Below are positions 1,065 through 11,715 of a DNA stretch of 11,715 nt, in pieces; the stretch's first letter is position 1, and every line of letters starts with the position of its first letter. The stretch lies in IMG/VR virus record IMGVR_UViG_2778261201_000003, positions 1 through 11,715 of that record; one strand, written 5' to 3'. The notes below the pieces were generated by a model. That model saw only the letters and a program-made list of their open reading frames with translations. It did no database searches and was not told the origin of the DNA. Source of the stretch: a virus. Its lineage: Duplodnaviria; Heunggongvirae; Uroviricota; Caudoviricetes. Position numbers and translations under genes: made by a program.

Positions 1065-1187
1065 TCTACATTTGAAAATGCACGGTAATTCTGAAATGCA
1101 AAAAATCAACCAAACCAGCGCAATGCCTGAAAAAACTGACGTTCACTGGAGTGGTCGGTTTAGCGTTGCACCAATGCTCGATAGGAT
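1065..1187 (+). repeat. attL-side copy of the dusA 5' region (native chromosomal version)
   Basis: About 81% identical over ~110 bp to 10302-10411 (21 mismatches by hand alignment); identical blocks include ATGCCTGAAAAAACTG and ATGCTCGA; similarity stops after ~1187. Confidence 0.65.
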
Positions 1188-1200
1188 GTACCGTTTTTGA
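1078..1200 (+). pseudogene. dusA: Displaced 5' fragment of native dusA (40 codons then TGA)
   Basis: Translates to MHGNSEMQKINQTSAMPEKTDVHWSGRFSVAPMLD then diverges (RMYRF*); parallels the N-terminus of the intact dusA at 10302. Confidence 0.6.
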
Positions 1201-1325
1201 AAAACAAGTAGTTATACACTTTGTGGGAGCCTATTGGGAACCCGGTGTTTTCATTTCAAGGTGTAATCCATGCCGGGCATCAGAATGAGATATAATGAGA
1301 TTTTTAGTGTTCCGCTTGAGAGTCT

Positions 1326-1862
1326 ATGATGCTTACCCTAGACGAGATAGGTCAATCTGTACGTAACAATATCCAGTTGATTATTGATCATGTCGGCTTA
1401 CCTCTTGCTGTTGGTCCGCTCAGTGATGATGATTACAAGATTCTGTGTGGTGGCTATGGTGAGCTTGAATGGGACTATGCGTTAAGCACCTATGGCAACT
1501 CCAGAGAAAAGTATGAGTTCTGCATAAAACTTGTTCAGCAAGGTCGGGTTCAGGGAATACCATCAGGAGCAGCAATTTGTGTTTATGGGGTTGAAGAAAA
1601 CATCTTTCGTATCCATATGATCGAAAGGTTTTCTAGAGAAGATGAATCTCACCCATTGAAAGGGCGCATGGTTTTACTCACTCTTATGAGTGCTTTTATA
1701 TTTTGTAAAGCTGTTGAATGTAAAGTTGTCCACATTGTAGAGCCAGTACCAGAACTGGTGCAGTATTACGAGTCTTTTGGTTTCCGCATGGAACAGTGCG
1801 GTTATGTGATGTCTGCAGTCATTGATGAGCTGCAGGATATCTTTCTTAAATTTGCTCAGTAG
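1326..1862 (+). CDS. Hypothetical cargo protein, possibly a GNAT-fold acetyltransferase
   Basis: 178-aa ORF; C-terminal segment KVVHIVEPVPELVQYYESFGF resembles the GNAT beta-strand/helix/YxxxGF pattern; no canonical Q/RxxGxG/A motif seen, so function is tentative. Confidence 0.5.
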   Translation: MMLTLDEIGQSVRNNIQLIIDHVGLPLAVGPLSDDDYKILCGGYGELEWDYALSTYGNSREKYEFCIKLVQQGRVQGIPSGAAICVYGVEENIFRIHMIERFSREDESHPLKGRMVLLTLMSAFIFCKAVECKVVHIVEPVPELVQYYESFGFRMEQCGYVMSAVIDELQDIFLKFAQ

Positions 1863-2058
1863 GTATAGACGAGAAGGGTCTACAAATTGTAGGATACCCG
1901 TCCAGATTACCTTAAAGGTACATCTATGGCAGTCGTTTTGTGCTTAAACTACTAAGAAACGATGTCACCAATCGACATGATCGATTGGCATAAGTTAGCG
2001 AAACAAGCTAGCTTTAAAGAGAGGGTTAGAGGCGCCTTTACTGTCTCGGGAGTTTTCT

Positions 2059-2232
2059 ATGAAAGATCAAAAAGCAACCAAGCCACAGGTTAAGTTCGAC
2101 ACAATGAAAGCATTCGCAGGTATGGGTGCTGCTGTTGAAGTTCTGATGAAGGCTGCTCCTAATGCGTTCACTCACGCTACTGTCTCTGGTAAAGAGCAGC
2201 AGGGTAAGCTTCGTCGTCGCAAAGCAGCATGA
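2059..2232 (+). CDS. Small basic hypothetical protein (57 aa)
   Basis: ATG at 2059 preceded by GGGAG (2048-2052); ends TGA 2230-2232; followed by a strong intrinsic terminator; not in the ORF track because it is under 60 aa. Confidence 0.5.
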   Translation: MKDQKATKPQVKFDTMKAFAGMGAAVEVLMKAAPNAFTHATVSGKEQQGKLRRRKAA

Positions 2233-2252
2233 TCATAGCTGGTGCTTTTTGA

Positions 2253-2278
2253 AAACCCGCCTTTAGGCGGGTTTTTTC
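2253..2278. terminator. Bidirectional Rho-independent terminator
   Basis: AAACCCGCC (2253-2261), loop TTTA, GGCGGGTTT (2266-2274), then T-run; A-run upstream gives a U-tract on the minus strand too. Ends the plus small ORF and the minus-strand operon. Confidence 0.75.
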
Positions 2279-2279
2279 T

Positions 2280-2561
2280 TTAGTGATGTTCTTTGCCCTT
2301 CTGTTTGCTTGTTCTGACCTGTTCCCACTCGATACGTCCTTCTTCTCGTCTTTTGTCTATGTATTCCGCAAGATCCTGAATATTGATGCAACGTTTTGCT
2401 TTTTGTGATGTGCCGATGCGATATGTTGGAACGGGCAACTTACAAGCGTTTGCTTTTGCTTCTGCCGTGGCTGGACTCATGCCAAAGTACTTTTGGCTAA
2501 CTGCTGAGAGTTCAATGTTAGGGGTATTGAATTCAGCCATCAGTAAAAACAAGGTGTTCAT
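2280..2561 (-). CDS. PrtN/AlpA-like small DNA-binding protein (possible regulator or excision factor)
   Basis: Start chosen at ATG 2561 (MNTLFLLMAEF...) with GGAG 7 nt upstream; the MNTLFLL N-terminus resembles PrtN-family proteins as I recall them. Confidence 0.55.
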   Translation of the reverse strand: MNTLFLLMAEFNTPNIELSAVSQKYFGMSPATAEAKANACKLPVPTYRIGTSQKAKRCINIQDLAEYIDKRREEGRIEWEQVRTSKQKGKEHH

Positions 2562-2597
2562 AATTTTCTCCATCAAAACCGGCTGCACCCGGGAAAA

Positions 2598-3170
2598 TCA
2601 TAATTCTGTGCTGGTGGCAGGAATTAATTTCTGCCAGATAGCGGAAACATATTTTGCCTGATGACGAGCATCAGCCAGGGCGTTGTGCCGTTCGCCATCG
2701 AAAGGCATGTCCATTTTTGGGTCGAATCCGATGGAACGCCCAAGCGTAACGATCGTGCGCGCATCGTGATCATTCCAGTACGCCCATGGGCAGATTTGTC
2801 CTGCTCGCTCATAAGCTCCGCGTAAAATTACGTTGTCGAAGTTGGCTCCGTTACCCCAGACTTTTAAATATTTCGTATTGTCTGCGTGCCGATTAATGAA
2901 ATGGCTCAGTTCAGAGAGTGCATCGCTGATCGACAAAGTATCATCAATACAGATTGCAGCTCGTGCTTCAGGGCTTTGTTTCAACCACCACAGGATGGTG
3001 TCGCCGTCAGGTGTGGCCCCTTGCTCCATAGCACTGTCCAAGCTGACAGCCGTATAGAATTCTTGTCCGATGTCTCCGGTTTCTGGGGTGAAGAACACTG
3101 CGCCAATAGAAACGATCGGCGCATCCTTATTTTTCCCCATCGTCTCAAGGTCGATCATTAAGTTGTTCAT
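2598..3170 (-). CDS. DEDDh-type 3'-5' exonuclease (DnaQ-like fold)
   Basis: Motifs MIDLETMG (Exo I), WGNGANFD (Exo II) and HNALADA (Exo III); start ATG at 3170 overlaps the upstream stop (ATGA) with GGAGG upstream. Confidence 0.8.
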   Translation of the reverse strand: MNNLMIDLETMGKNKDAPIVSIGAVFFTPETGDIGQEFYTAVSLDSAMEQGATPDGDTILWWLKQSPEARAAICIDDTLSISDALSELSHFINRHADNTKYLKVWGNGANFDNVILRGAYERAGQICPWAYWNDHDARTIVTLGRSIGFDPKMDMPFDGERHNALADARHQAKYVSAIWQKLIPATSTEL

Positions 3171-3451
3171 CACTTTACCTCCTGCGGCGGTTCTTGTATT
3201 GGCATCGGCTGAGCTATATATAGCGGCTGAACATACCAGCCCTTTGATAACCAACTGTCAGCAACGTTTTTACTTCTGGTTATTGCCGGAATACCTAAGC
3301 CATTGTCTGAATGCAGCCATGCCACCGGATCCTCTTCCAGCGATGCCAGAGCAATTTCATAAGCACGGCGCTCAACATTGTCTCGCACGTCCATGCTGCT
3401 GATTCGTTCTTTGATTTCTTTAATCAGTTCTTTATCGGTAAATGTGGTCAT
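3170..3451 (-). CDS. Hypothetical phage protein (93 aa)
   Basis: ORF translationally coupled on both sides (TAATG overlap at 3451, ATGA at 3170); GGAG upstream. Confidence 0.6.
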   Translation of the reverse strand: MTTFTDKELIKEIKERISSMDVRDNVERRAYEIALASLEEDPVAWLHSDNGLGIPAITRSKNVADSWLSKGWYVQPLYIAQPMPIQEPPQEVK

Positions 3452-3813
3452 TATGCTCCAGCCTCCGGTGCTTTTGGCATTACAGCCCAGTGAGTGATAT
3501 TGACGTTTTCAAGGTCCCCGACCTGAAATGTCCACTGCCATTCTCCGGTTTCTTTTTGCCCCCATGTATACCAGAGAGAACGCCAGCCAATCAGCCAGCC
3601 TTCTCCATTAGCATCAAATAACAGAATACTTTCGTTCGCTGGCGGCAGTTCAGCTGACACTGGTATTACTTTGTTTTCCAGTGCTGCACATTTAGCTTCA
3701 AGCGCATCAAATTTACGCACCAGGTACTCAGCATTTGTTTCGTTCACTTTCAGATCTCGCGGTACACATTTCCCGCGAAGAAACCCTTCCATTTCGAAAA
3801 CATTCATGCGCAT
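3451..3813 (-). CDS. DUF551-like phage protein
   Basis: 120-aa ORF with Trp-rich C-terminal region (DANGEGWLIGW...W...W) typical of DUF551 proteins in lambdoid early regions; overlaps the upstream gene end by 10 nt. Confidence 0.6.
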   Translation of the reverse strand: MRMNVFEMEGFLRGKCVPRDLKVNETNAEYLVRKFDALEAKCAALENKVIPVSAELPPANESILLFDANGEGWLIGWRSLWYTWGQKETGEWQWTFQVGDLENVNITHWAVMPKAPEAGA

Positions 3814-4340
3814 TTGCGTAACTCCGATAACTCGTTAAAACGTTCCATAAACATCCCATAGGCATGGCCTGGCGACAGTGGAATAACTTTGAACATCTCT
3901 GTTGCCGGGATACCTTCCAGTACAGGCCAGAAAGAGCCATCATCAAGCCCGAGATCGCGGCGTTCGGTTGCCAGCATGATGAGATCGGCATATTTCACGG
4001 GCGTACTCATAACCGGGGGTAACCCGTATTTCTCACGGATTACGGCGTCTATTTTTTCTTCCATCCGTTTATAGTCAGGAAGAAGGCGTTTCAGTGGTGC
4101 GGGAATGTCCTGGCAATACGCTTCTGTTGCATCATGCATTAACGCTTCAAAAGCAAATTCGTGCGGTACCAGCTGGCTGCAAAGCACCGCATGTTGGGCG
4201 ACGCTGTAGAAGTGTGAAAGATGTCCTGCAAAGCGACAGATATTTGAAAGGGAAACCGCGATATCGTTAATAACGATGTCATCTTTATTTATCCTGTCAT
4301 AATAAAAATGCTTCCCGGAAAAAGTTTTAATAAATGACAT
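3804..4340 (-). CDS. HD-domain phosphohydrolase, YfdR-like (5'-deoxynucleotidase family)
   Basis: Start at ATG 4340 (MSFIKTFSGK...) with GGAG 8 nt upstream, giving 178 aa; H...HD metal-binding pattern (AGHLSH, MHDATEAY); resembles E. coli CPS-53 YfdR as recalled. Confidence 0.75.
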   Translation of the reverse strand: MSFIKTFSGKHFYYDRINKDDIVINDIAVSLSNICRFAGHLSHFYSVAQHAVLCSQLVPHEFAFEALMHDATEAYCQDIPAPLKRLLPDYKRMEEKIDAVIREKYGLPPVMSTPVKYADLIMLATERRDLGLDDGSFWPVLEGIPATEMFKVIPLSPGHAYGMFMERFNELSELRKCA

Positions 4341-4429
4341 TTTGTTCTCCACGTATATGCGCTGCACCGCGCTGAATTTTGATTGCAGCAATCCAGCCCA
4401 TTTGACATGGGATGATTGCTGCAATTTTT

Positions 4430-5347
4430 TTAAGTTGTTGGATTTTGGCTTTTATCTTCTTTGTAAGAAAGAAGGTCACACATCAAATTAACTACCTTGC
4501 TGAATTGGAAAAGGTCAGTGCCAGTCTGATGACGCCACTGGAATGCTTTATCATCTTCATCATTAAATGTCTGAGATTGAGTATTGATGCGCGAAAAATG
4601 GAAATTTTCGGTAAGAATGAAGGTCACACCGCAACCGGATAACTCCATTTTATCAGCAGTGAAACTACTACTAAGGCTATCGGCCAGTTCGCTTTGAATT
4701 GACTCATGCTCAGCTGAGTAGCGAATAATTTCCTTTTGATCTGCGTAGCGTGATAGCTGAATATAATTCCCGACAGTGAATCCTTCAAATGCATTGGCTG
4801 CACCATTGATGTAGTTCTTCAGGCGTGTAGTCAGTCCATTCTTGATATCACTGATGTTGATTGTTTCTGTTTTCACTGAACCGACAACCTTAATCAGCAT
4901 TGCGCATACCATACCGGCTATTATTTTATTGGTTGTGTTGATTACCAATAATTTCTCATCAGTGCTGTACAATGCAAGAATCAGCGTAGACTTAACAAAT
5001 GCCTGTTTGCATAGATCTACTCGTACGTTATCAATAATGGCCAGTCGTTCGGCACGCTTTAATTTATTCCCGGACATATTTTCGATTGTTTGGATTCGAG
5101 AATTAGCTTCTTTCATGACGACATGTCGGGGAATTATTTTCTGATCATGACGGATTACCATTGCGTACCCACCAGATATCGGAGTTACCAGTTCACCAGT
5201 GACAGGATTCTCTACAAAAGAGGACCGTGAAAATTCTGTTTCCCCGATTTCAGAATAAGGGAGTTCGAGAAGATGCCCTTCAATAGCCTGTATACTAGGT
5301 AATGTTGCTCGGTACACAATTGCGTTACGAAATTTTGGTAATTTCAT
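4430..5347 (-). CDS. RdgC-like recombination-associated protein
   Basis: Start at ATG 5347 (MKLPKFRNAIVYR...) with GAGGAAAA RBS, 305 aa; N-terminal FRN..VYR and KIIPRHVV segments parallel E. coli RdgC. The open frame extending to 5497 is GC-rich non-coding read-through. Confidence 0.7.
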   Translation of the reverse strand: MKLPKFRNAIVYRATLPSIQAIEGHLLELPYSEIGETEFSRSSFVENPVTGELVTPISGGYAMVIRHDQKIIPRHVVMKEANSRIQTIENMSGNKLKRAERLAIIDNVRVDLCKQAFVKSTLILALYSTDEKLLVINTTNKIIAGMVCAMLIKVVGSVKTETINISDIKNGLTTRLKNYINGAANAFEGFTVGNYIQLSRYADQKEIIRYSAEHESIQSELADSLSSSFTADKMELSGCGVTFILTENFHFSRINTQSQTFNDEDDKAFQWRHQTGTDLFQFSKVVNLMCDLLSYKEDKSQNPTT

Positions 5348-5397
5348 TCTATTTTCCTCTGCACAAGATATTAGTTTCTCCACAAAACAGAGAAGAA

Positions 5398-5745
5398 CAC
5401 CTGCGGTGGCAGCCGCCCGGATGGATTGGGTTATGAGCCCGTCGTCCGGTGATGCTCTTCTCTGTTTTGTAAAAAGAGCGGTACCAGCCGGAAGCAAGTG
5501 TACAAACTGGTACCGCGAGGACTACACACAGCATAAAGTTGTGGTGCCGGGTGCCTCCCGGTGCCTGGCGAAGGTTGCACACCAGGCGGGTGGGTATCCA
5601 CAGAAGGTCGACTGTCAGCCTCAACCTTAACCCGCGTGCGCTGAGCCGCATTCACCACAACGCTAAGGATTCTCTCTGGTTGAAAATACTTAGCTGTTAT
5701 GTGCCTGTCTTTTCACCACTTCAGGCTCGGTGGTATCCTTTTAAG
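5398..5745. other. GC-rich, hairpin-dense non-coding element (candidate structured RNA or regulatory region)
   Basis: Four overlapping ORFs in different frames, all Arg/Pro/Gly-rich and not protein-like; perfect 10-bp inverted repeat GCGGTACCAG/CTGGTACCGC (5478-5516); further stems CCGGG/CCCGG (about 5546-5560), GCCTGG/CCAGGC (about 5564-5588) and GTGG/CCAC (about 5592-5603). Confidence 0.3.
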
Positions 5746-5770
5746 TCCGTATACATAAAAGGAAAATCAA

Positions 5771-6016
5771 ATGACTTTTGATGAAAAAGAACTTGATAAT
5801 GCAATTAATAAAATCATCGTAACGTCGCTCTTTTCCTGTCTCAGCGACACTCAGCAGAAACAGTTCTACGAATCGGCTTTCAACATGATCGAGCGTTGTT
5901 GTTTCTGCGATGCCGACGAGCTACCTGAAAAAATCAGGAAACAGTTGGCTGATGCTCTTCGAGTGCGACTTTCTGACCAATTTTCTGAAATGTACTCTCC
6001 GAATTTGGACAAATAG
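5771..6016 (+). CDS. Hypothetical small protein, reverse-oriented moron-like gene
   Basis: 81-aa ORF with AAGGAAA RBS; upstream candidate promoter (TTCACC, 16-nt spacer, extended -10 TGgTATCCT at 5712-5739); 12-bp bulged hairpin at 6026-6051 after the stop. Confidence 0.4.
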   Translation: MTFDEKELDNAINKIIVTSLFSCLSDTQQKQFYESAFNMIERCCFCDADELPEKIRKQLADALRVRLSDQFSEMYSPNLDK

Positions 6017-6209
6017 AAAAAGGCCATTTCCATTCAGGGTCTGATGGAAATACTTCAGCCTGTTCCAAAGCACGGCGTAAAGAGAATACAACTCCAGCCA
6101 TAATCTGATGTTTCCCATTGGTCCAGCTATCGCCGCTCTGATCTACAGGAGCGGCTATGTCGTATGACCAAACGACTTCACCACTATTGTTTAAAATCTG
6201 GACTTTCAT
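5934..6209 (-). CDS. Hypothetical protein (91 aa)
   Basis: ATG 6209 with GGAGG 12 nt upstream, just after the zinc-ribbon gene stop; its 3' end overlaps the plus ORF 5771-6016 by 83 bp, so one of the two may be spurious or shorter. Confidence 0.4.
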   Translation of the reverse strand: MKVQILNNSGEVVWSYDIAAPVDQSGDSWTNGKHQIMAGVVFSLRRALEQAEVFPSDPEWKWPFSICPNSESTFQKIGQKVALEEHQPTVS

Positions 6210-6217
6210 TTTGTTCT

Positions 6218-6421
6218 TTAACCTCCAGATTTCCGCGCATCTAAAGGCGCATTCTCATTTGGTGTGAACTGAATAGTTGTGCTGATATTGATTAATGCCC
6301 CGACACACAAGACTACGCACTCAGAGCAGATAGCAACTTCATCTTTTCCGCCTTTGGCGATGATTTTTTTTGCCTGCAGCTCGTTTGCGCCACAAAACGA
6401 GCATGTGAAATAACGGTTCAT
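6218..6421 (-). CDS. ClpX-type zinc-ribbon small protein
   Basis: YFTCSFCG...AICSECVVLC gives a CxxC...CxxC pattern closely resembling the ClpX N-terminal zinc-binding domain; start chosen at ATG 6421 (alternative ATG 6439 has no RBS). Confidence 0.6.
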   Translation of the reverse strand: MNRYFTCSFCGANELQAKKIIAKGGKDEVAICSECVVLCVGALINISTTIQFTPNENAPLDARKSGG

Positions 6422-6519
6422 TTGCGCTCTCTTACACATAGTATTTAACGAATCATCCGGTCATTCATACGCCACCGGCGGCTACTTCGTGGGCGTCCTG
6501 CCTGTTCGTTGTTTCGCTT

Positions 6520-6555
6520 GGGTACATTATGTATCTCAAAGGTACATTGTCAAGT
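6520..6555 (-). promoter_or_regulatory. pL-like early-left promoter with candidate repressor operators
   Basis: Minus strand -35 TTGACA (6553-6548), 16-17 nt spacer, -10 CATAAT/ATAATG (about 6531-6525); GGTACATTATGTATC (6521-6535) overlaps -10 and GGTACATTGTCAAGT (6541-6555) overlaps -35. Confidence 0.5.
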
Positions 6556-6580
6556 ATAAAAAAACCTGCCGAAGCAGGTT
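6556..6580 (-). terminator. Rho-independent terminator downstream of the cI-like gene
   Basis: On the minus strand: AACCUGC, UUCG tetraloop, GCAGGUU, then a run of 7 U. Confidence 0.65.
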
Positions 6581-6592
6581 CATAAACATTGA

Positions 6593-7267
6593 TTAGGCTT
6601 TGATTTTGTATCTTCTTGGTTTTCCTGAGAAAATCACTGTACCAATTATAGAGCAATTACCGTTGATCTTAATGTAAGGCTCAGGCCAGTTTGGGTTTAA
6701 CGCTTTGAGATAACGCTGTGTCCCATCTTCTATCAACCTTTTGAAGGTGGTTTCACCTGTATCGTGCATCAATGCAATAACGTCGTCACCGTGGCAGGCA
6801 GGGACTTCAGGATCTACAAAAATCATGTCTCCCGGGCGGTACTCATCAATCATTGAATCACCAATCACCCGCAAGATATAAGTCATTTCGCCACAGGGTA
6901 CAGGGCAGGGATAAGTTTCTGCTGTGCTCAAATCAACCTCAGAATAGCCAACTTCTTTCCATGCTCCGGCCTGTACCCATGATATGACAGGGACTAACGT
7001 TATTTGTTTGTTAGTGATTGAAACATCAGGTTTTTTTGTGATGTTCGTGGTCTGGTGTTCTTGATCAAGCCATCCGACAGGCAGGTCGAAACATTTTTCG
7101 ATGTGCCGTGCCATGCTGTCACCGATATTTTTAGTAGCACCATCTCCCATAAACCTGCTGGTCTGGGTTGGCTCGCGATCAATCATGGTGGCAAAGGAAG
7201 AATTCCCGCCAACACCATCTCTCAGTTTTCTGGCGTTAGACCGCCGGATGTCATGGACTGTTTTCAT
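6593..7267 (-). CDS. CI-like repressor with N-terminal HTH and C-terminal S24 (LexA-like) autopeptidase domain
   Basis: 224-aa ORF; candidate Ala-Gly cleavage site (VQAGAW); Ser in VIGDSM and Lys in TFKRL form the Ser/Lys dyad; divergent from the Cro-like gene. Confidence 0.85.
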   Translation of the reverse strand: MKTVHDIRRSNARKLRDGVGGNSSFATMIDREPTQTSRFMGDGATKNIGDSMARHIEKCFDLPVGWLDQEHQTTNITKKPDVSITNKQITLVPVISWVQAGAWKEVGYSEVDLSTAETYPCPVPCGEMTYILRVIGDSMIDEYRPGDMIFVDPEVPACHGDDVIALMHDTGETTFKRLIEDGTQRYLKALNPNWPEPYIKINGNCSIIGTVIFSGKPRRYKIKA

Positions 7268-7357
7268 AAAGAAATTAAAACCTTTGTACCGATAAGGTAC
7301 AAGTATCTTGAAGGTTCATGCTAATCATGTAATATGTATATCGGAGGTACATATTGT
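7268..7357. promoter_or_regulatory. Divergent cI/cro switch region with palindromic operator-like sites
   Basis: Perfect palindrome TTGTACC-gataa-GGTACAA (7284-7302); GGTACATATTGTATG (7346-7360) nearly identical to the pL-region site; candidate pR (TTGAAG 7308-7313, TAATAT 7330-7335); candidate leaderless pRM-like promoter on the minus strand (-35 TTGTAC, -10 TTTAAT ending 7 nt before the cI ATG). Confidence 0.45.
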
Positions 7358-7558
7358 ATGAAAGCGTATTGGGACTCTTTAACCAAAGAACAGCAGGGCG
7401 AGTTGGCCGGAAAAGTTGGCTCAACACCAGGCTACTTACGGCTGGTTTTCAATGGTTATAAAAAAGCCAGTTTTGTGCTGGCTAAAAAACTTGAGCAATG
7501 CACGTCAGGTGCAATTACGAAATCTGACTTAAGACCGGATATCTATCCGAAAGATTAA
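7358..7558 (+). CDS. Cro-like small HTH regulator (YdaS-like)
   Basis: 66-aa ORF from ATG 7358 with GGAGG at 7343-7347; the upstream ATG at 7334 lacks an RBS; motif GAITKSDLRPDIYP resembles Cro/YdaS-type proteins; divergent from the repressor. Confidence 0.7.
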   Translation: MKAYWDSLTKEQQGELAGKVGSTPGYLRLVFNGYKKASFVLAKKLEQCTSGAITKSDLRPDIYPKD

Positions 7559-7589
7559 CAGAACACCTTCAATTTTTAACCACAGAACG

Positions 7590-8102
7590 ATGAGGCTAAC
7601 CGTGGGTAAGCATCACTGGAAAGTAGAAAAACAGCCTGAGTGGTACGTGAAAGCTGTCAGAAAAACTATCGCGGCGTTGCCGGGGGGTTACGCTGAAGCT
7701 GCTGAGTGGCTGGATGTAACAGAGAACGCTTTATTCAACCGCCTTCGTGCAGATGGCGATCAGATTTTCCCGCTGGGATGGGCAATGATTTTACAGCGCG
7801 CGGCTGGCACTCACTACATTGCGGATGCTGTCGCACAGTCTGCTGGTGGGGTGTTTGTATCGCTTCCTGAAATTGAGGAAGTAGAGAACGCCGATATAAA
7901 CCAGCGCCTGCTGGAAGTCATCGAACAGATCGGGAGTTACTCAAAGCAGATTCGTTCGGCAATCGAAGATGGGGTATCTGATTTTCCCCTGTCCCCACAT
8001 CCCGTTTCGCTGCTTCTCCCAAACCAACCTTTCAAATATTTTTCTGAATCAGGTGATATTTCGCCTCTTCTCCTGTTTTTACAACAGGAGAAGCACTCAT
8101 GA
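7590..8102 (+). CDS. CII-like phage regulatory protein (putative, 186 CII/CP76-like)
   Basis: 170-aa ORF directly after the cro-like gene; size and position match CII of 186-type phages; real start may be GTG 7602 (GAGG RBS); stop overlaps the invertase start (ATGA). Confidence 0.5.
   Translation: MRLTVGKHHWKVEKQPEWYVKAVRKTIAALPGGYAEAAEWLDVTENALFNRLRADGDQIFPLGWAMILQRAAGTHYIADAVAQSAGGVFVSLPEIEEVENADINQRLLEVIEQIGSYSKQIRSAIEDGVSDFPLSPHPVSLLLPNQPFKYFSESGDISPLLLFLQQEKHS
8067..8093. promoter_or_regulatory. 27-bp perfect palindrome covering the invertase RBS
   Basis: CTTCTCCTGTT-tttac-AACAGGAGAAG (11-bp arms); the right arm contains the invertase Shine-Dalgarno AGGAG. Confidence 0.4.
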
Positions 8103-8662
8103 TTTACGGGTATGTTCGTGTATCAACAAATCATCAGGATACAGAGTTGCAACGTCTTGCACTTGAGTCAGCTGGCTGTGAGCGAATTTATGAAGAATAT
8201 GCCAGTGGCAGAACAGCTAATCGCCCTGTGTTAAAGGAATTAATTTCGGTGATGAAAAGTGGAGATGAGTTGATTGTCTGGAAGCTAGATCGGATAGGGA
8301 GAAATGTGCTACATGCGCTATTGATGTTTCAAAATCTGCACGAAAAAGGCGTTAATTTTCGGAGTATTACAGATGGTGTAGACCTGAAAACAGCAAGTGG
8401 TCGCTATAATTTCCGTAATATTCTTTCTGCTGCGCAGTATGAATCTGATTTGAATAGCGAGCGAACTTTAGCTGGTTTGGCTATTGCCAGATCCAAAGGC
8501 CGGATTGGTGGGCGTAGACCGAAGTTTAGCGACGAGCAGTGGCAACAGATGGGAGCGCTCATAGCGGCAGGGAAATCACGGCGTTATGTTGCACGTATCT
8601 ATAACGTTGGGCTATCAACCCTATATAAACGATTTCCTGTTACTGGCATTCAAACGAAATAA
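8099..8662 (+). CDS. Serine recombinase, Hin/Gin/Pin-family DNA invertase
   Basis: 187 aa; N-terminal MIYGYVRVSTNHQD with catalytic Ser; resolvase fold motifs (LDRIGR); C-terminal HTH (GKSRRYVARIYNVGLSTLYKR). Confidence 0.85.
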   Translation: MIYGYVRVSTNHQDTELQRLALESAGCERIYEEYASGRTANRPVLKELISVMKSGDELIVWKLDRIGRNVLHALLMFQNLHEKGVNFRSITDGVDLKTASGRYNFRNILSAAQYESDLNSERTLAGLAIARSKGRIGGRRPKFSDEQWQQMGALIAAGKSRRYVARIYNVGLSTLYKRFPVTGIQTK

Positions 8663-8702
8663 TTTAAAAGCAATTTAAAGAGTTATTTGTCTAATGTTGG
8701 AA

Positions 8703-8738
8703 GCCGCAGCCACGTCGTATGCAAGAACGTGCTGCGGC
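8703..8738. other. GC-rich hairpin in the convergent intergenic region (possible bidirectional terminator or binding site)
   Basis: GCCGCAGC(C)ACG pairs with CGTGCTGCGGC across a 13-nt loop; no clear U-tract on either strand. Confidence 0.35.
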
Positions 8739-8805
8739 TGGCTGGCGAACTTTCGATAGTGCGAGTATTGAATGATTTCCAGCCGTTACCGATTTTACGT
8801 GTTAA

Positions 8806-9054
8806 TTAGTGAACAAACCACTCGTCAGCAGATTCCCAGGTATCTTTCAGAGTCTCCTGAACAAAAGTTTTTGCAGAATCCTTATCTGCGGTGCGTGTAA
8901 CAGAAAGGCCATCGTTGCTGGTGGCTTTTACGATCACCTCTACATCGTCATAACGTTTACTGATGCGTCGGGTTAATTCTTCCTTTAACGCATCCACAGC
9001 ACCGGTTGGCATTTTAGTCATTTTTTCTTTGGCTATGCAGATTTCAATACGCAT
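8806..9054 (-). CDS. DinI-family DNA-damage-inducible protein
   Basis: 82 aa, [11 protein letters not shown]...[11 protein letters not shown] parallels E. coli DinI (MRIEVTIAK...ETWESADDWFV); two LexA boxes immediately upstream. Confidence 0.85.
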
Positions 9055-9067
9055 AAAAGTCCCTCTA

Positions 9068-9115
9068 TACTGTGTTTGTATACAGTATTATTTTTAACTG
9101 TATGGATAAACAGTG
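9068..9115 (-). promoter_or_regulatory. Two tandem LexA (SOS) boxes over the DinI-like promoter
   Basis: TACTGTGTTTGTATACAGTA (9068-9087) and AACTGTATGGATAAACAGTG (9096-9115), both CTGT-N8-ACAG; minus-strand -35 TTGACA (9119-9114) and a -10 TAAAAA-like hexamer overlap them. Confidence 0.75.
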
Positions 9116-10213
9116 TCAAGAGGTCTTATTTCTGCTCCTTTGGAGCTCTTCAAAACGATTATGTAAAGATTTCGGATACAGTTCGGTATATACCTGCCAT
9201 AGCACGTTTAATGAACGATGCCCTGTGACCTGGGCGACTTCCTCAATACTAAAACCAGCCTCAAATAAGCGACTTGCCCCTTCTCTACGCAAATCATGGT
9301 ATCGCAGATCCTTAATACCTAATTTGCTTCTTACCCTCTGAAATCCCGCAGTAACAGAAGTGCTGTTATATGGAAAAATGAATTCCGATTTTTTGGGCTG
9401 TCGTTGGACGATATCCCAGGCTTCCCCAAGCAAGGCTACTTTCATGTGGTTGCCTTCCTTTTTGCGTGGATCTTTCCTGTCTCTTACGAGTATAGATTTT
9501 TGTTCCTGGTCGAGATCTTCCCATCGTAACCGGCATACTTCTCCGATCCGCATACAGGACCACACAGAAAATTTGAGGATATCAACGAACGGAATTTTTG
9601 AGCATTTATGAGTAGATCGTTGTTGAAGGCCTTCAATGAGCATGTCCAGTTCATCAGATGCTGGTCTACGATTACGACGGTTTGATTTACCAATCAAACC
9701 AAGTTTAAGTAGATATGGGCGAGCGCTTTTCGCCGGGTTTGATGTGTAATTAATTCCGTATACAGGTTTGGCCGCATCCAGAACACTGCCAAGATAACTA
9801 ACATCGTGGCTGACTGTTGCTGGACCTGCACCAGCGTTGTTTCTTAGCCTGCAATGTTCAATTACGTCATTTTCTGTCAGTTCAGATAGTTTGATCGCGG
9901 AGATGTCACTATCCATAAGCAGTTCCAGCACATATCTTTTAGTACGGCCTGCTTTACCTCCGGCATTTGGGTCATTTAAATATTTGTGTAGTAAGTCACG
10001 GACTGTAAGTCCGTCAACTGCATTTGATGATGGAATGCCATATAGATCTAATTCCATCACTTTCTGTGTTCCCCATGTTTTGGCATGAGCATGTTTAGGG
10101 AATGTTTTGCTTTCCCTGTAAGTGATAACACCTTTTTCTTTGATAATCACATTACAGCGATAGCGTGGTGTGCCATCGGATTTTAGTCGTTTCTCTATGT
10201 TATAGTACGCCAT
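9116..10213 (-). CDS. int: Tyrosine recombinase, dusA-associated integrase
   Basis: 365 aa; C-terminal catalytic region with R...HDLR...GH...Y pattern (RYHDLRREGA, VTGHRSLNVLWQVYTELY); divergent from and adjacent to the dusA 5' end. Confidence 0.9.
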   Translation of the reverse strand: MAYYNIEKRLKSDGTPRYRCNVIIKEKGVITYRESKTFPKHAHAKTWGTQKVMELDLYGIPSSNAVDGLTVRDLLHKYLNDPNAGGKAGRTKRYVLELLMDSDISAIKLSELTENDVIEHCRLRNNAGAGPATVSHDVSYLGSVLDAAKPVYGINYTSNPAKSARPYLLKLGLIGKSNRRNRRPASDELDMLIEGLQQRSTHKCSKIPFVDILKFSVWSCMRIGEVCRLRWEDLDQEQKSILVRDRKDPRKKEGNHMKVALLGEAWDIVQRQPKKSEFIFPYNSTSVTAGFQRVRSKLGIKDLRYHDLRREGASRLFEAGFSIEEVAQVTGHRSLNVLWQVYTELYPKSLHNRFEELQRSRNKTS

Positions 10214-10232
10214 TACACGACCTCGTTATTTC

Positions 10233-10268
10233 GGGTTCCCATAAAACGTGGGAACCTGTGCGGGAACC
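10233..10268. promoter_or_regulatory. GGGAACC repeat cluster between int and dusA (candidate arm-type or promoter sites)
   Basis: GGGTTCCC (10233-10240), GGGAACC (10249-10255), GGGAACC (10262-10268); a further GGGAACC at 1236-1242 just inside attL. Confidence 0.35.
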
Positions 10269-10288
10269 TAACGCGAGAAAAATAGCCT

Positions 10289-10411
10289 GAAATGTTCAAA
10301 AATGCACGATAATCATGAAACACAAAAAATTAATCAAACCAGCGTGATGCCTGAAAAAACTGGTGTTTACTGGAATTCTCGGTTTAGCATTGCTCCTATG
10401 CTCGACTGGAC
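10289..10411 (+). repeat. attR-side copy of the dusA 5' region (island-supplied 5' end fused to native dusA)
   Basis: About 81% identical to 1065-1187; downstream of ~10406 the sequence continues as intact dusA. Confidence 0.65.
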
Positions 10412-11339
10412 GGACAGACATTGCCGCTATTTCTTGCGTCTGCTTTCCCGCAATACGTTGCTGTATACCGAAATGGTGACCACAGGGGCGATTATTCACG
10501 GTAAAGGTGATTACCTGGCGTACAGTGAAGAAGAACATCCGGTAGCGTTGCAACTCGGCGGTAGCGATCCGGCGGCGCTGGCACAGTGTGCGAAGCTGGC
10601 AGAAGCGCGTGGATATGATGAGATCAACCTGAATGTCGGCTGCCCGTCTGACCGGGTGCAGAACGGCATGTTTGGTGCGTGTCTGATGGGTAATGCGCAG
10701 CTGGTTGCCGACTGTGTGAAAGCGATGCGCGATGTGGTGTCGATTCCAGTGACGGTGAAAACGCGTATTGGCATCGATGACCAGGACAGCTATGAATTTC
10801 TCTGCGATTTCATCAACACTGTTTCCGGCAAAGGCGAGTGTGAGATGTTTATCATCCACGCACGTAAAGCCTGGCTTTCGGGGTTAAGCCCGAAAGAAAA
10901 CCGTGAAATCCCGCCGCTCGATTATCCGCGTGTGTATCAACTGAAGCGTGACTTTCCGCATCTGACAATGTCGATTAACGGTGGTATCAAGTCGCTGGAA
11001 GAGGCCAAAGCACACCTGCAACATATGGATGGCGTGATGGTCGGGCGCGAGGCGTATCAGAATCCGGGTATTCTGGCGGCGGTAGACCGGGAGATCTTTG
11101 GTTCCTCGGATACCGATGCCGATCCGGTGGCGGTAGTGCGCGCCATGTATCCGTACATTGAGCGTGAACTCAGCCAGGGGACGTATCTCGGCCATATTAC
11201 CCGGCATATGCTGGGTTTGTTCCAGGGTATTCCTGGCGCGCGGCAGTGGCGGCGTTATTTAAGTGAAAATGCCCATAAAGCGGGTGCTGACATTAACGTG
11301 CTGGAACACGCGCTCAAACTGGTGGCGGATAAGCGTTAA
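10302..11339 (+). CDS. dusA: tRNA-dihydrouridine synthase A
   Basis: 345-aa ORF recognised as E. coli DusA throughout; the first ~35 codons ([32 protein letters not shown]) differ from the displaced copy at 1078 and are island-derived. Confidence 0.95.
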
Positions 11340-11368
11340 CTTTTCACCAAAAAGTAGTCAAATTCACC

Positions 11369-11398
11369 ACGCCCTGCGCACCGTCGCGGGGCGTTTTG
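11369..11398 (+). terminator. Candidate intrinsic terminator after dusA
   Basis: ACGCCCTGCG, loop CACCGT, CGCGGGGCGT (one mismatch), followed by TTTT. Confidence 0.5.
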
Positions 11399-11419
11399 CT
11401 GTTAAATCAATAGATTATT

Positions 11420-11440
11420 TTTGGCATGATTCTTGTAATG
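11420..11440 (+). promoter_or_regulatory. Candidate sigma-54 promoter for pspG
   Basis: TGGCAT-N5-TTGTA (11422-11437) approximates the -24/-12 consensus TGGCAC-N5-TTGCA; pspG is known to be PspF/sigma-54 dependent. Confidence 0.4.
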
Positions 11441-11472
11441 CCAGCAAGAGATTTCATATTTGGGAGAGCATC

Positions 11473-11715
11473 ATGCTGGAACTACTTTTTGTGATTGGCT
11501 TTTTTGTCATGCTGATGGTCACCGGCGTTTCGTTGCTGGGCATTATCGCCGCGCTGGTTGTGGCGACGGCCATTATGTTCCTCGGCGGTATGCTGGCATT
11601 GATGATTAAGTTGCTGCCGTGGTTACTACTGGCGATTGCGGTGGTGTGGGTTATTAAGGCGATTAAAGCACCAAAAATGCCGAAATATCAGCGTTATGAC
11701 CGCTGGCGTTACTAA
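11473..11715 (+). CDS. pspG: Phage shock protein G
   Basis: 80-aa hydrophobic protein MLELLFVIGFFVML...KYQRYDRWRY; GGGAGAG RBS at 11462-11468. The 150-aa ORF from 11263 is an unsupported upstream extension overlapping dusA. Confidence 0.9.
   Translation: MLELLFVIGFFVMLMVTGVSLLGIIAALVVATAIMFLGGMLALMIKLLPWLLLAIAVVWVIKAIKAPKMPKYQRYDRWRY

Follow-up and report, generated by a model that had tools for sequence, protein, structure and literature searches.

Din-family DNA invertases are small serine recombinases with a Ser9/10 nucleophile, conserved Arg, Asp and Glu residues and a C-terminal helix-turn-helix (HTH) domain, and the members Gin, Cin, Pin and Hin cross-complement each other. Gin of phage Mu and Cin of phage P1 act on 26-bp sites (gix and cix) with a 2-bp core and switch the C terminus of the tail fibre. 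In Mu and D108, the invertase gene lies just outside one crossover site, whereas cixL of P1 is located at the 3' end of cin. Prophage e14 of Escherichia coli K-12, which encodes PinE, retains both pix sites (TTCTCCCAAACC-AA-GGTTTTCGAGAG and TTCTCCCAAACC-AA-CGTTTATGAAAA) together with a 1.8-kb segment. The invertase gene pinL of phi80 (Lula; NC_021190) is an orphan: upstream of it, only an 'internal fragment, phage tail collar domain protein (pseudogene)' is annotated, with dinI and int nearby. The GenBank record of phi80 labels a palindrome before pinL as 'IR3' (23919-23945).

Here, we analyzed a related locus in a stretch of viral DNA of 11,715 nucleotides (referred to as the window). The window is a decayed prophage remnant of ~9.2 kb in dusA that combines lambdoid early genes with a tail module of the e14/Mu type and a tail-fibre inversion switch of the Pin type. 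Among known loci, phi80 pinL comes closest: its leader is identical and contains TTCTCCCAAACC-AA-CCTTTCAAATAT as the site, the small hairpin and, as IR3, the 11-5-11 palindrome. Among functional systems, e14 pinE is the nearest; the locus resembles it in its tail-module context (baseplate J, ymfQ, stfP/tfaP, tfaE/stfE, and pin), in its early genes (ymfK/ymfT/ymfL) and in the position of the crossover, which falls within the NLGLGE motif of the tail fibre. In contrast to the window, e14 integrates at icd and not at dusA, and its invertase has a Gin-like leader (TGGCATCATTCCTG...CAGGGGGA) without the 11-bp palindrome. The locus in the window is the remnant of a Din-family (Pin/PinL-type) tail-fibre inversion switch and not a working switch; it is ordinary and largely already known, with nothing outside known biology. 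Our explanation is that a deletion removed the invertible segment, that one crossover site was left behind, and that the palindrome before the invertase gene is a translational hairpin. As a whole, we assign it a probability of roughly 0.65.

The invertase gene (positions 8099 to 8662, plus strand) is intact and encodes a Pin/PinL-type protein of 187 amino acids. The Hin/Gin/Pin-type assignment of the first-pass annotation was corroborated by Pfam, which recognized an N-terminal resolvase catalytic domain (Resolvase, 2e-36) and a C-terminal HTH (HTH_7, 7e-12), and by a structure search, in which the closest solved structure was Gin (3uj3, 8.5e-57). Residues that are invariant among Cin, Gin and PinL are all kept (R7, S9, D64, R65, R68, E121, R122 and G137-G138-R139). 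The protein is 100% identical to the invertases of the complete prophage contigs L002 to L004 and 80% identical to phi80 PinL, and, in an alignment that comprised PinL, Cin, Gin and relatives, it is farther from the Gin-like group (50 to 55% identity to Cin, Gin and relatives; 50 to 53% to Mu Gin and P1 Cin themselves). Within the gene, positions 8117 to 8188 (plus strand) correspond by homology only (~71% identity) to the recombinational enhancer that the P1 record annotates at cin coding positions 19 to 90. Mu/D108, e14 and P1 carry G-N13-C Fis-type matches at coding positions 22 and 71, which the window and phi80 lack; in this respect, the window gene differs from those of Mu and P1, whose enhancer Fis-site matches are not evident in it.

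Next to the invertase gene, we identified a 26-bp site consisting of two 12-bp halves and a 2-bp core, as is typical of the Din family. This pixR-like 12-2-12 site, formed by the two half-sites given above for phi80, occupies positions 8014 to 8039 on the plus strand (core AA at 8026-8027) and stands 28 bp upstream of the palindrome. It had been missed in the first-pass annotation, which regarded the palindrome as the only strong site candidate. In the comparison with the e14 pin locus that was suggested there, the inner half and core of the window site, TTCTCCCAAACC-AA, are identical to those of both e14 pix sites, of which e14 keeps two and the window one. In the intact prophage of strain APEC37, the best inverted repeat in and near the tail-fibre region consists of AAACCTTGGTTTGGGAGAAG, located inside the tail-fibre gene, and CTTCTCCCAAACCAACCTTT, located 67 to 86 bp upstream of the invertase ATG (20 nt, 90%, 1.9 kb apart). 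The latter sequence is the counterpart of positions 8013 to 8032 of the window.

Furthermore, we compared ~80 related viral loci. To the right of the AA core, these are collinear with the invertase type, and to the left of it the sequence varies freely (TTCTCCCAAACC, TTCGCCTAAACC, CTGTTCGAAACG, and others). Among the 29 loci with the leader type of the window, column conservation collapses directly left of the core. This break of homology maps the crossover point to the AA core, and it is very likely that 8014-8039 is the crossover site. A strict test for an inverted partner was positive in 44 of 78 related loci, with the partner 1.2 to 3.2 kb upstream, and negative in 34 of the 78 within the ~4 kb that were fetched. 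In the window, the crossover site occurs only once (0.00 occurrences expected by chance), and no second copy of it, or of either palindrome arm, was found with mismatches allowed. Two inverted sites flanking a segment are thus not present in the window, and with one site left there is nothing for the enzyme to invert in cis. The earlier statement that the window holds neither a partner nor an invertible segment is therefore correct. The puzzle that it seemed to pose disappears upon comparison with intact relatives, which keep the partner and a segment of ~1.8 to 1.9 kb; in the window, both were removed by a deletion of 29.6 kb.

This deletion became apparent from the intact prophage of E. coli strain 4114, relative to which 29,614 bp are missing from the window. 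The 4114 prophage is inserted at dusA and is complete (~38 kb), with head, tail, baseplate, ymfQ and tail-fibre modules; next come two tail-fibre-assembly genes in opposing orientations and then the same invertase gene as in the window. In a blastn comparison with this prophage (L082), positions 5371 to 7976 and 7972 to 11715 of the window matched at 99.1 to 99.6% identity to regions that lie 29.6 kb apart. The blastn gap and the APEC37 alignment, in which homology on the right side begins at GGTATCTG, place the junction at a 4-bp GGTA microhomology (7973-7976). The ymfL gene is collinear with that of strain 4114 as far as position 7976, so that the deletion extends from the middle of this CII-like gene to a point in the invertible tail-fibre segment ~50 bp short of its right end. 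A remnant of the segment is still present at 7977-8025 (minus strand) and constitutes the start of an alternative tail-fibre C-terminal module. The minus-strand translation of 7977-8031, GLGEAAKRDVGTGENQIP, matches the start of the 'gp53-like domain' open reading frame (ORF) of intact prophages (KVGLGEAAKRGVGTGENQIPD...). Alternative tail-fibre C termini are thus represented by an 18-codon stub in the window and by full modules in 4114 and APEC37.

Positions 7500 to 9100 were searched by megablast against 5,426 complete E. coli genomes. Homology on the right-hand side starts at 7973, and in the matching genomes tail-fibre DNA stands immediately upstream of the invertase gene. None of these genomes spans the whole query, and the junction is absent from them; an exact scan for the junction in species representative genomes also gave no match. 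The left part of the window (5600-7972) elsewhere adjoins ymfK/ymfT/ymfL in other genomes. The exact 166-amino-acid fusion protein created by the deletion (GTG start at 7602) was found in two assemblies only, GCA_002468195.1 (contig NMNV01000010.1) and SRR3726206 (Logan assembly), and no record was found of the exact fusion protein with an ATG start. Since a complete prophage aligns with both flanks at 99% identity, interrupted by a clean gap of 29.6 kb, and the fusion exists in only two assemblies, the orphan state of the invertase gene is a recent loss and not a design. That the segment was lost by illegitimate deletion at the GGTA microhomology is, in our view, practically certain. Unlike in phi80, where the remnant is a stable part of a viable lambdoid phage, the deletion in the window inactivated the prophage as well and joined ymfL to the invertase leader.

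The remaining gene neighbourhood is that of a dusA-integrating prophage. A tyrosine integrase specific for dusA (9116-10213, minus strand; Pfam Phage_integrase) forms the right prophage end and adjoins dusA (10302-11339; Pfam Dus), an arrangement that is identical in APEC37 and strain 4114. At the left prophage end, the 5' end of dusA is duplicated at 1075-1191 (plus strand; att region), forming a 117-nt direct repeat with 10299-10415 (81% identical). In the intact 4114 prophage, the counterpart of this copy is a partial pseudogene for tRNA-dihydrouridine synthase, located at the far end. Between the ends, neighbouring genes encode a CI-like repressor with an S24 peptidase domain (6593-7267, minus strand) and a YdaS/Cro-like protein (7334-7558), followed by the ymfL/CII-like early gene (7590-8102, plus strand), which is native to ~7976 and continues into foreign sequence fused to it by the deletion. 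In line with this, the Pfam domain Phage_CP76 (1e-9) covers only residues 21 to 129 of the ymfL product. Downstream of the invertase gene, dinI (8806-9054, minus strand) is in convergent orientation to it.

Between the crossover site and the invertase gene lies the palindrome CTTCTCCTGTT-TTTAC-AACAGGAGAAG (8067-8093, plus strand). As reported in the first-pass annotation, it is a perfect 11-5-11 palindrome that covers the ribosome-binding site (RBS). Its left arm (8067-8077) is complementary to the Shine-Dalgarno (SD) region, the loop comprises 8078-8082, and the right arm (8083-8093) contains AGGAG at 8086-8090, 8 nt before the invertase ATG at 8099. It is the sole hairpin in the window with arms of at least 11 bp, and first-order Markov shuffles lead to an expectation of 0.013 such hairpins per window. 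The 11-bp stem has a calculated energy of -14.9 kcal/mol. A smaller hairpin of the type GGYGA-N4-TCGCY with 5 to 6 bp was present directly upstream in the minimum free energy fold (8051-8066, plus strand; -6.8 kcal/mol alone). The 91-nt leader as a whole yielded z = -5.0 against dinucleotide shuffles. When ranked among 61 annotated genes of an intact prophage, the invertase start is third in SD pairing probability (0.90, with a median of 0.53) and second in ensemble free energy.

The palindrome was present in every leader of this type that was recovered, comprising 17 distinct sequences among the ~80 loci, both intact and orphan. Two versions exist, CTTCTCCTGTT-TTTAC-AACAGGAGAAG and TTTCTCCTGTT-TTCAY-AACAGGAGAAA, which differ by a compensatory change of the outermost pair from C-G to U-A and by loop changes. 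Of the 11 arm pairs, 9 are invariant, and the single double change may represent one event. Variation is much greater in the leader stretch between crossover site and palindrome and in the spacer preceding the ATG than in the arms. The left arm neither codes for protein nor belongs to the invertible segment and is therefore under a constraint of its own. In the small hairpin, the stem is kept in the 17 distinct leaders while the loop is variable, and the C-G to U-G and G-C to G-U changes observed there maintain pairing only in plus-strand RNA. Further arm variants were sought in 80 viral loci, in 80 genome loci of diverse species and in a flank-anchored degenerate scan of viral contigs, and none was new. 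More distant invertases from Morganella and Kluyvera (68 to 72% identity) have unrelated leaders. Covariation therefore cannot separate a role in RNA from one in DNA. The minimal covariation speaks against a hairpin insofar as it is equally expected of a symmetric site in DNA. The outer 6 to 7 bp of the arms (CTTCTCC) equal the outer part of the pix half-site, which would be consistent with binding of invertase to the DNA as an alternative.

The collinearity described above shows that the palindrome belongs to the invertase leader and lies outside the crossover point. We infer that it probably forms an anti-SD/SD stem-loop that sequesters the RBS and throttles invertase translation, a proposal that we hold with moderate confidence. 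In the mRNA, the left arm (CUUCUCCUGUU) would pair with the right arm AACAGGAGAAG and bury the SD sequence, with the small hairpin stacking just upstream of this stem. A stem of -14.9 kcal/mol is expected to reduce translation initiation strongly. Ribosome loading would then be rare and invertase levels very low, which would fit a switch that is meant to flip infrequently. The predicted fold and the invariant arms place the SD in a stable and conserved mRNA structure. Like other anti-SD leader hairpins, the structure pairs an upstream CUCCU-containing arm with AGGAG; in contrast to those, no ligand, temperature or sRNA trigger is evident here.

Occlusion of the SD or the AUG was also predicted in unrelated invertase leaders, namely those of the P2-like phage 500465-2 (arms CATCATCCCC...GGGGGATGATCATG, z = -4.3), P1 cin (arms GCTTGCTAT...ATAGTGAGC), S. 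flexneri and Yersinia YP3. It is not universal, as the leaders of D108 gin (with a GTG start), Morganella and Pantoea are without significant structure. Gin thus differs from the window invertase in its leader, its GTG start and the lack of a significant RBS hairpin. Of the three options that the first-pass annotation offered for the palindrome, i.e., a lone recombination site, a translational control hairpin or an autoregulatory binding site, the hairpin is best supported and the first is effectively excluded by collinearity. In a literature search that had the phi80 genome paper outside its reach, no described function of this leader or of IR3 was found.

The palindrome might instead be a DNA operator at which an invertase dimer, or another dimeric HTH protein, represses or roadblocks expression of the invertase gene, in a manner reminiscent of Tn3/gamma-delta resolvase, which autoregulates at res. 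Both arms start with CTTCTCC, the 7 nt with which the inner half-site of the crossover (CTTCTCCCAAACC) also opens, and then continue into a T-rich tract; their outer ends are 25 bp apart compared with 26 bp in a real site. Moreover, perfect symmetry and invariant arms would be expected of a protein-binding site no less than of an RNA stem. The spacing, however, is an odd 11-5-11 and not 12-2-12, and GGAGAA is simply a strong SD, so that the likeness can follow from SD complementarity. In addition, e14 pinE and phage 500465-2 share the half-site TTCTCCCAAACC, yet their occluding arms are unlike it, and the G-U wobbles of the adjacent small hairpin make sense only in plus-strand RNA. We consider an operator unlikely on these grounds.

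Somewhat less probable still is that the stem-loop acts on the RNA in another way, either as a stabilizer at the 5' end of the mRNA or as an insulator or pause site by which read-through from the tail-fibre late operon is kept low. The stability of the structure is very high, and a weak candidate promoter can be recognized by eye (TTCAAA at 8031-8036, an 18-nt spacer, and GATATT at 8055-8060; no tool call), from which transcription would start at ~8067, the first base of the stem. A scan for promoters and terminators around the leader returned one chance-level promoter match on the minus strand and no convincing sigma-70 promoter upstream of the left arm. The presence of both arms in the mRNA of intact prophages is therefore an assumption, a point against the hairpin. 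The palindrome was not called as a terminator in the scan, and no T-run follows the stem on either strand, which makes a terminator role unlikely. Furthermore, AGGAG is located inside the stem, and any such function would coexist with RBS occlusion and not replace it.

The deletion has also created a new relation between ymfL and the invertase gene. The fused ymfL' ORF (7590/7602-8102) crosses both the crossover site and the palindrome, and its TGA stop codon (8100-8102) overlaps the invertase ATG (ATGA). Ribosomes that translate ymfL' from the early operon would open the hairpin and could then begin anew at the invertase ATG. A conserved upstream ORF that couples into the invertase gene in intact phages was considered and rejected, as the frame is not conserved between leader variants; any coupling in the window would therefore be an accident of this particular deletion. 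By analogy with the cross-complementation among Gin, Cin, Pin and Hin, it is plausible that the invertase acts in trans on other prophages. Such action would be a possible consequence of the segment loss and not the origin of the orphan gene. A more elaborate model, which we regard as very unlikely, treats the palindrome as a dual element. The RNA would hide the SD, and the DNA, with its TTCTCC arms, a span of 25 bp and an odd centre, would serve as a pseudo-pix site that does not recombine but is bound by the invertase for autoregulation. At the same time, translational coupling to ymfL' would bring the otherwise silent invertase under an SOS-inducible early promoter and would allow tail-fibre segments of other prophages to be flipped in trans after DNA damage.

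Alternatively, the invertase gene may never have had a segment of its own and may be kept as a stand-alone gene for action in trans on other prophages. Orphans do occur elsewhere, as in phi80 with its tail-collar pseudogene fragment, the strict test gave no partner within the ~4 kb fetched in the 34 loci mentioned above, and most E. coli genomes contain several related loci. The window, however, still has a crossover site and an 18-codon beginning of a tail-fibre module, and its flanks are 99% identical to a complete prophage with a clean 29.6-kb gap, which renders this origin highly improbable. Least likely of all is recombination by the invertase at the palindrome itself, either as a lone site, which had been considered earlier, or as a secondary one. 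The element is palindromic, close to 26 bp in size and shares TTCTCC in its arms with the pix half-site. It lacks, however, the AAACC-NN-GGTTT centre and an even 2-bp core; a partner in inverted or direct orientation was not found in the window, and none was noted in intact prophages; and in the ~80 loci both of its flanks are collinear with the invertase while the breakpoint lies at the AA core (8026-8027).

For annotation, these results mean that an "invertase without segment" in E. coli prophages can be resolved via a residual 12-2-12 site and intact relatives, and that annotators should not label the palindrome in front of PinL-type genes as a site of recombination. A translational throttle, if confirmed, would account for the way in which inversion is kept rare in this invertase lineage, and it would provide a compact, strong RBS-occluding part for engineered recombinase switches.

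A search of Rfam assigned no family to the leader and gave sub-threshold matches only elsewhere in the window, including CssrB at 8681-8736 (22 bits compared with a threshold of 76 bits). A GC-rich stem-loop at 8703-8738, between the convergent invertase and dinI genes, appeared in the fold of 8655-8760 (GCCGCAGC...GCTGCGGC, z = -2.9). Judged from this predicted fold and its position, the stem-loop, which has no T-run, is a probable bidirectional terminator.

The related viral-contig invertase loci (L002-L081) were searched for an inverted partner site with a strict test, allowing at most 2 mismatches in 14 nt within the ~4 kb fetched upstream of the invertase gene. By this test, 34 of the 78 related loci, phi80 and several with leaders of the lambdoid type among them, showed no partner site. 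It may be common for Pin-type invertases to be orphans or to act at long range.

We also inspected the region of the invertase gene that is homologous to the annotated enhancer of P1 cin (positions 8117 to 8188). Fis-type G-N13-C matches were not found at these positions of the window invertase, nor in pinL of phi80, its close orphan relative, whereas Mu/D108, e14, and P1 carry such matches at coding positions 22 and 71. A diverged enhancer may serve the PinL-type enzymes.

Upstream, the deletion that joined ymfL to the end of the invertible segment gave rise to a ymfL'/CII fusion ORF (7590 to 8102, plus strand), which runs across the lone pix-like crossover site and the palindrome preceding the invertase. 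Its stop codon (8100 to 8102) overlaps the invertase ATG (8099 to 8101) in the sequence ATGA, and invertase translation could be coupled via this ORF to the SOS-inducible early operon. Since the frame is not kept in other leader types, the arrangement looks accidental.

Within the same leader, the motif CAGGTGA (8050 to 8056), which overlaps a small hairpin, nearly repeats the Shine-Dalgarno (SD) arm of the palindrome, CAGGAGA. It could pair at 6 of 7 positions with the anti-SD sequence TCTCCTG (8069 to 8075), and this pairing is a possible alternative "on" structure of the leader. Across other leader variants, paired by hand, it is kept only partly.

The invertase and dinI genes converge on a GC-rich stem-loop, GCCGCAGC...GCTGCGGC (8703 to 8738), which is probably a bidirectional terminator. 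It overlaps a sub-threshold Rfam match (8681 to 8736) to the Shigella sRNA CssrB, scoring 22 bits against a threshold of 76 bits (E = 0.04).

Both ends of the dusA-integrated prophage remnant are marked by a 117-nt direct repeat of 81% identity that copies the dusA 5' end (1075 to 1191 and 10299 to 10415). The remnant measures ~9.2 kb, compared to ~38 kb for an intact prophage. The early-left region (1243 to 5370), with genes for RdgC-like, Rv2179c-like exonuclease, DUF551, and PrtN-like proteins, has no nucleotide match in the intact relative in E. coli strain 4114 except at 2311 to 2592; outside this unmatched region, the two prophages are 99% identical. The window prophage is a mosaic. Two further repeats were observed on this side. 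An inverted repeat (5382 to 5406 and 5446 to 5470; 25-nt arms, 84% complementary, 39 nt apart) is located where the RdgC-like ORF (4430 to 5497, minus strand) begins and just upstream of it. Directly downstream of the PrtN-like gene (2280 to 2588, minus strand), the palindrome AAAACCCGCC-TTTA-GGCGGGTTTT (2252 to 2275), with arms of 9 to 10 bp, looks like an intrinsic terminator.
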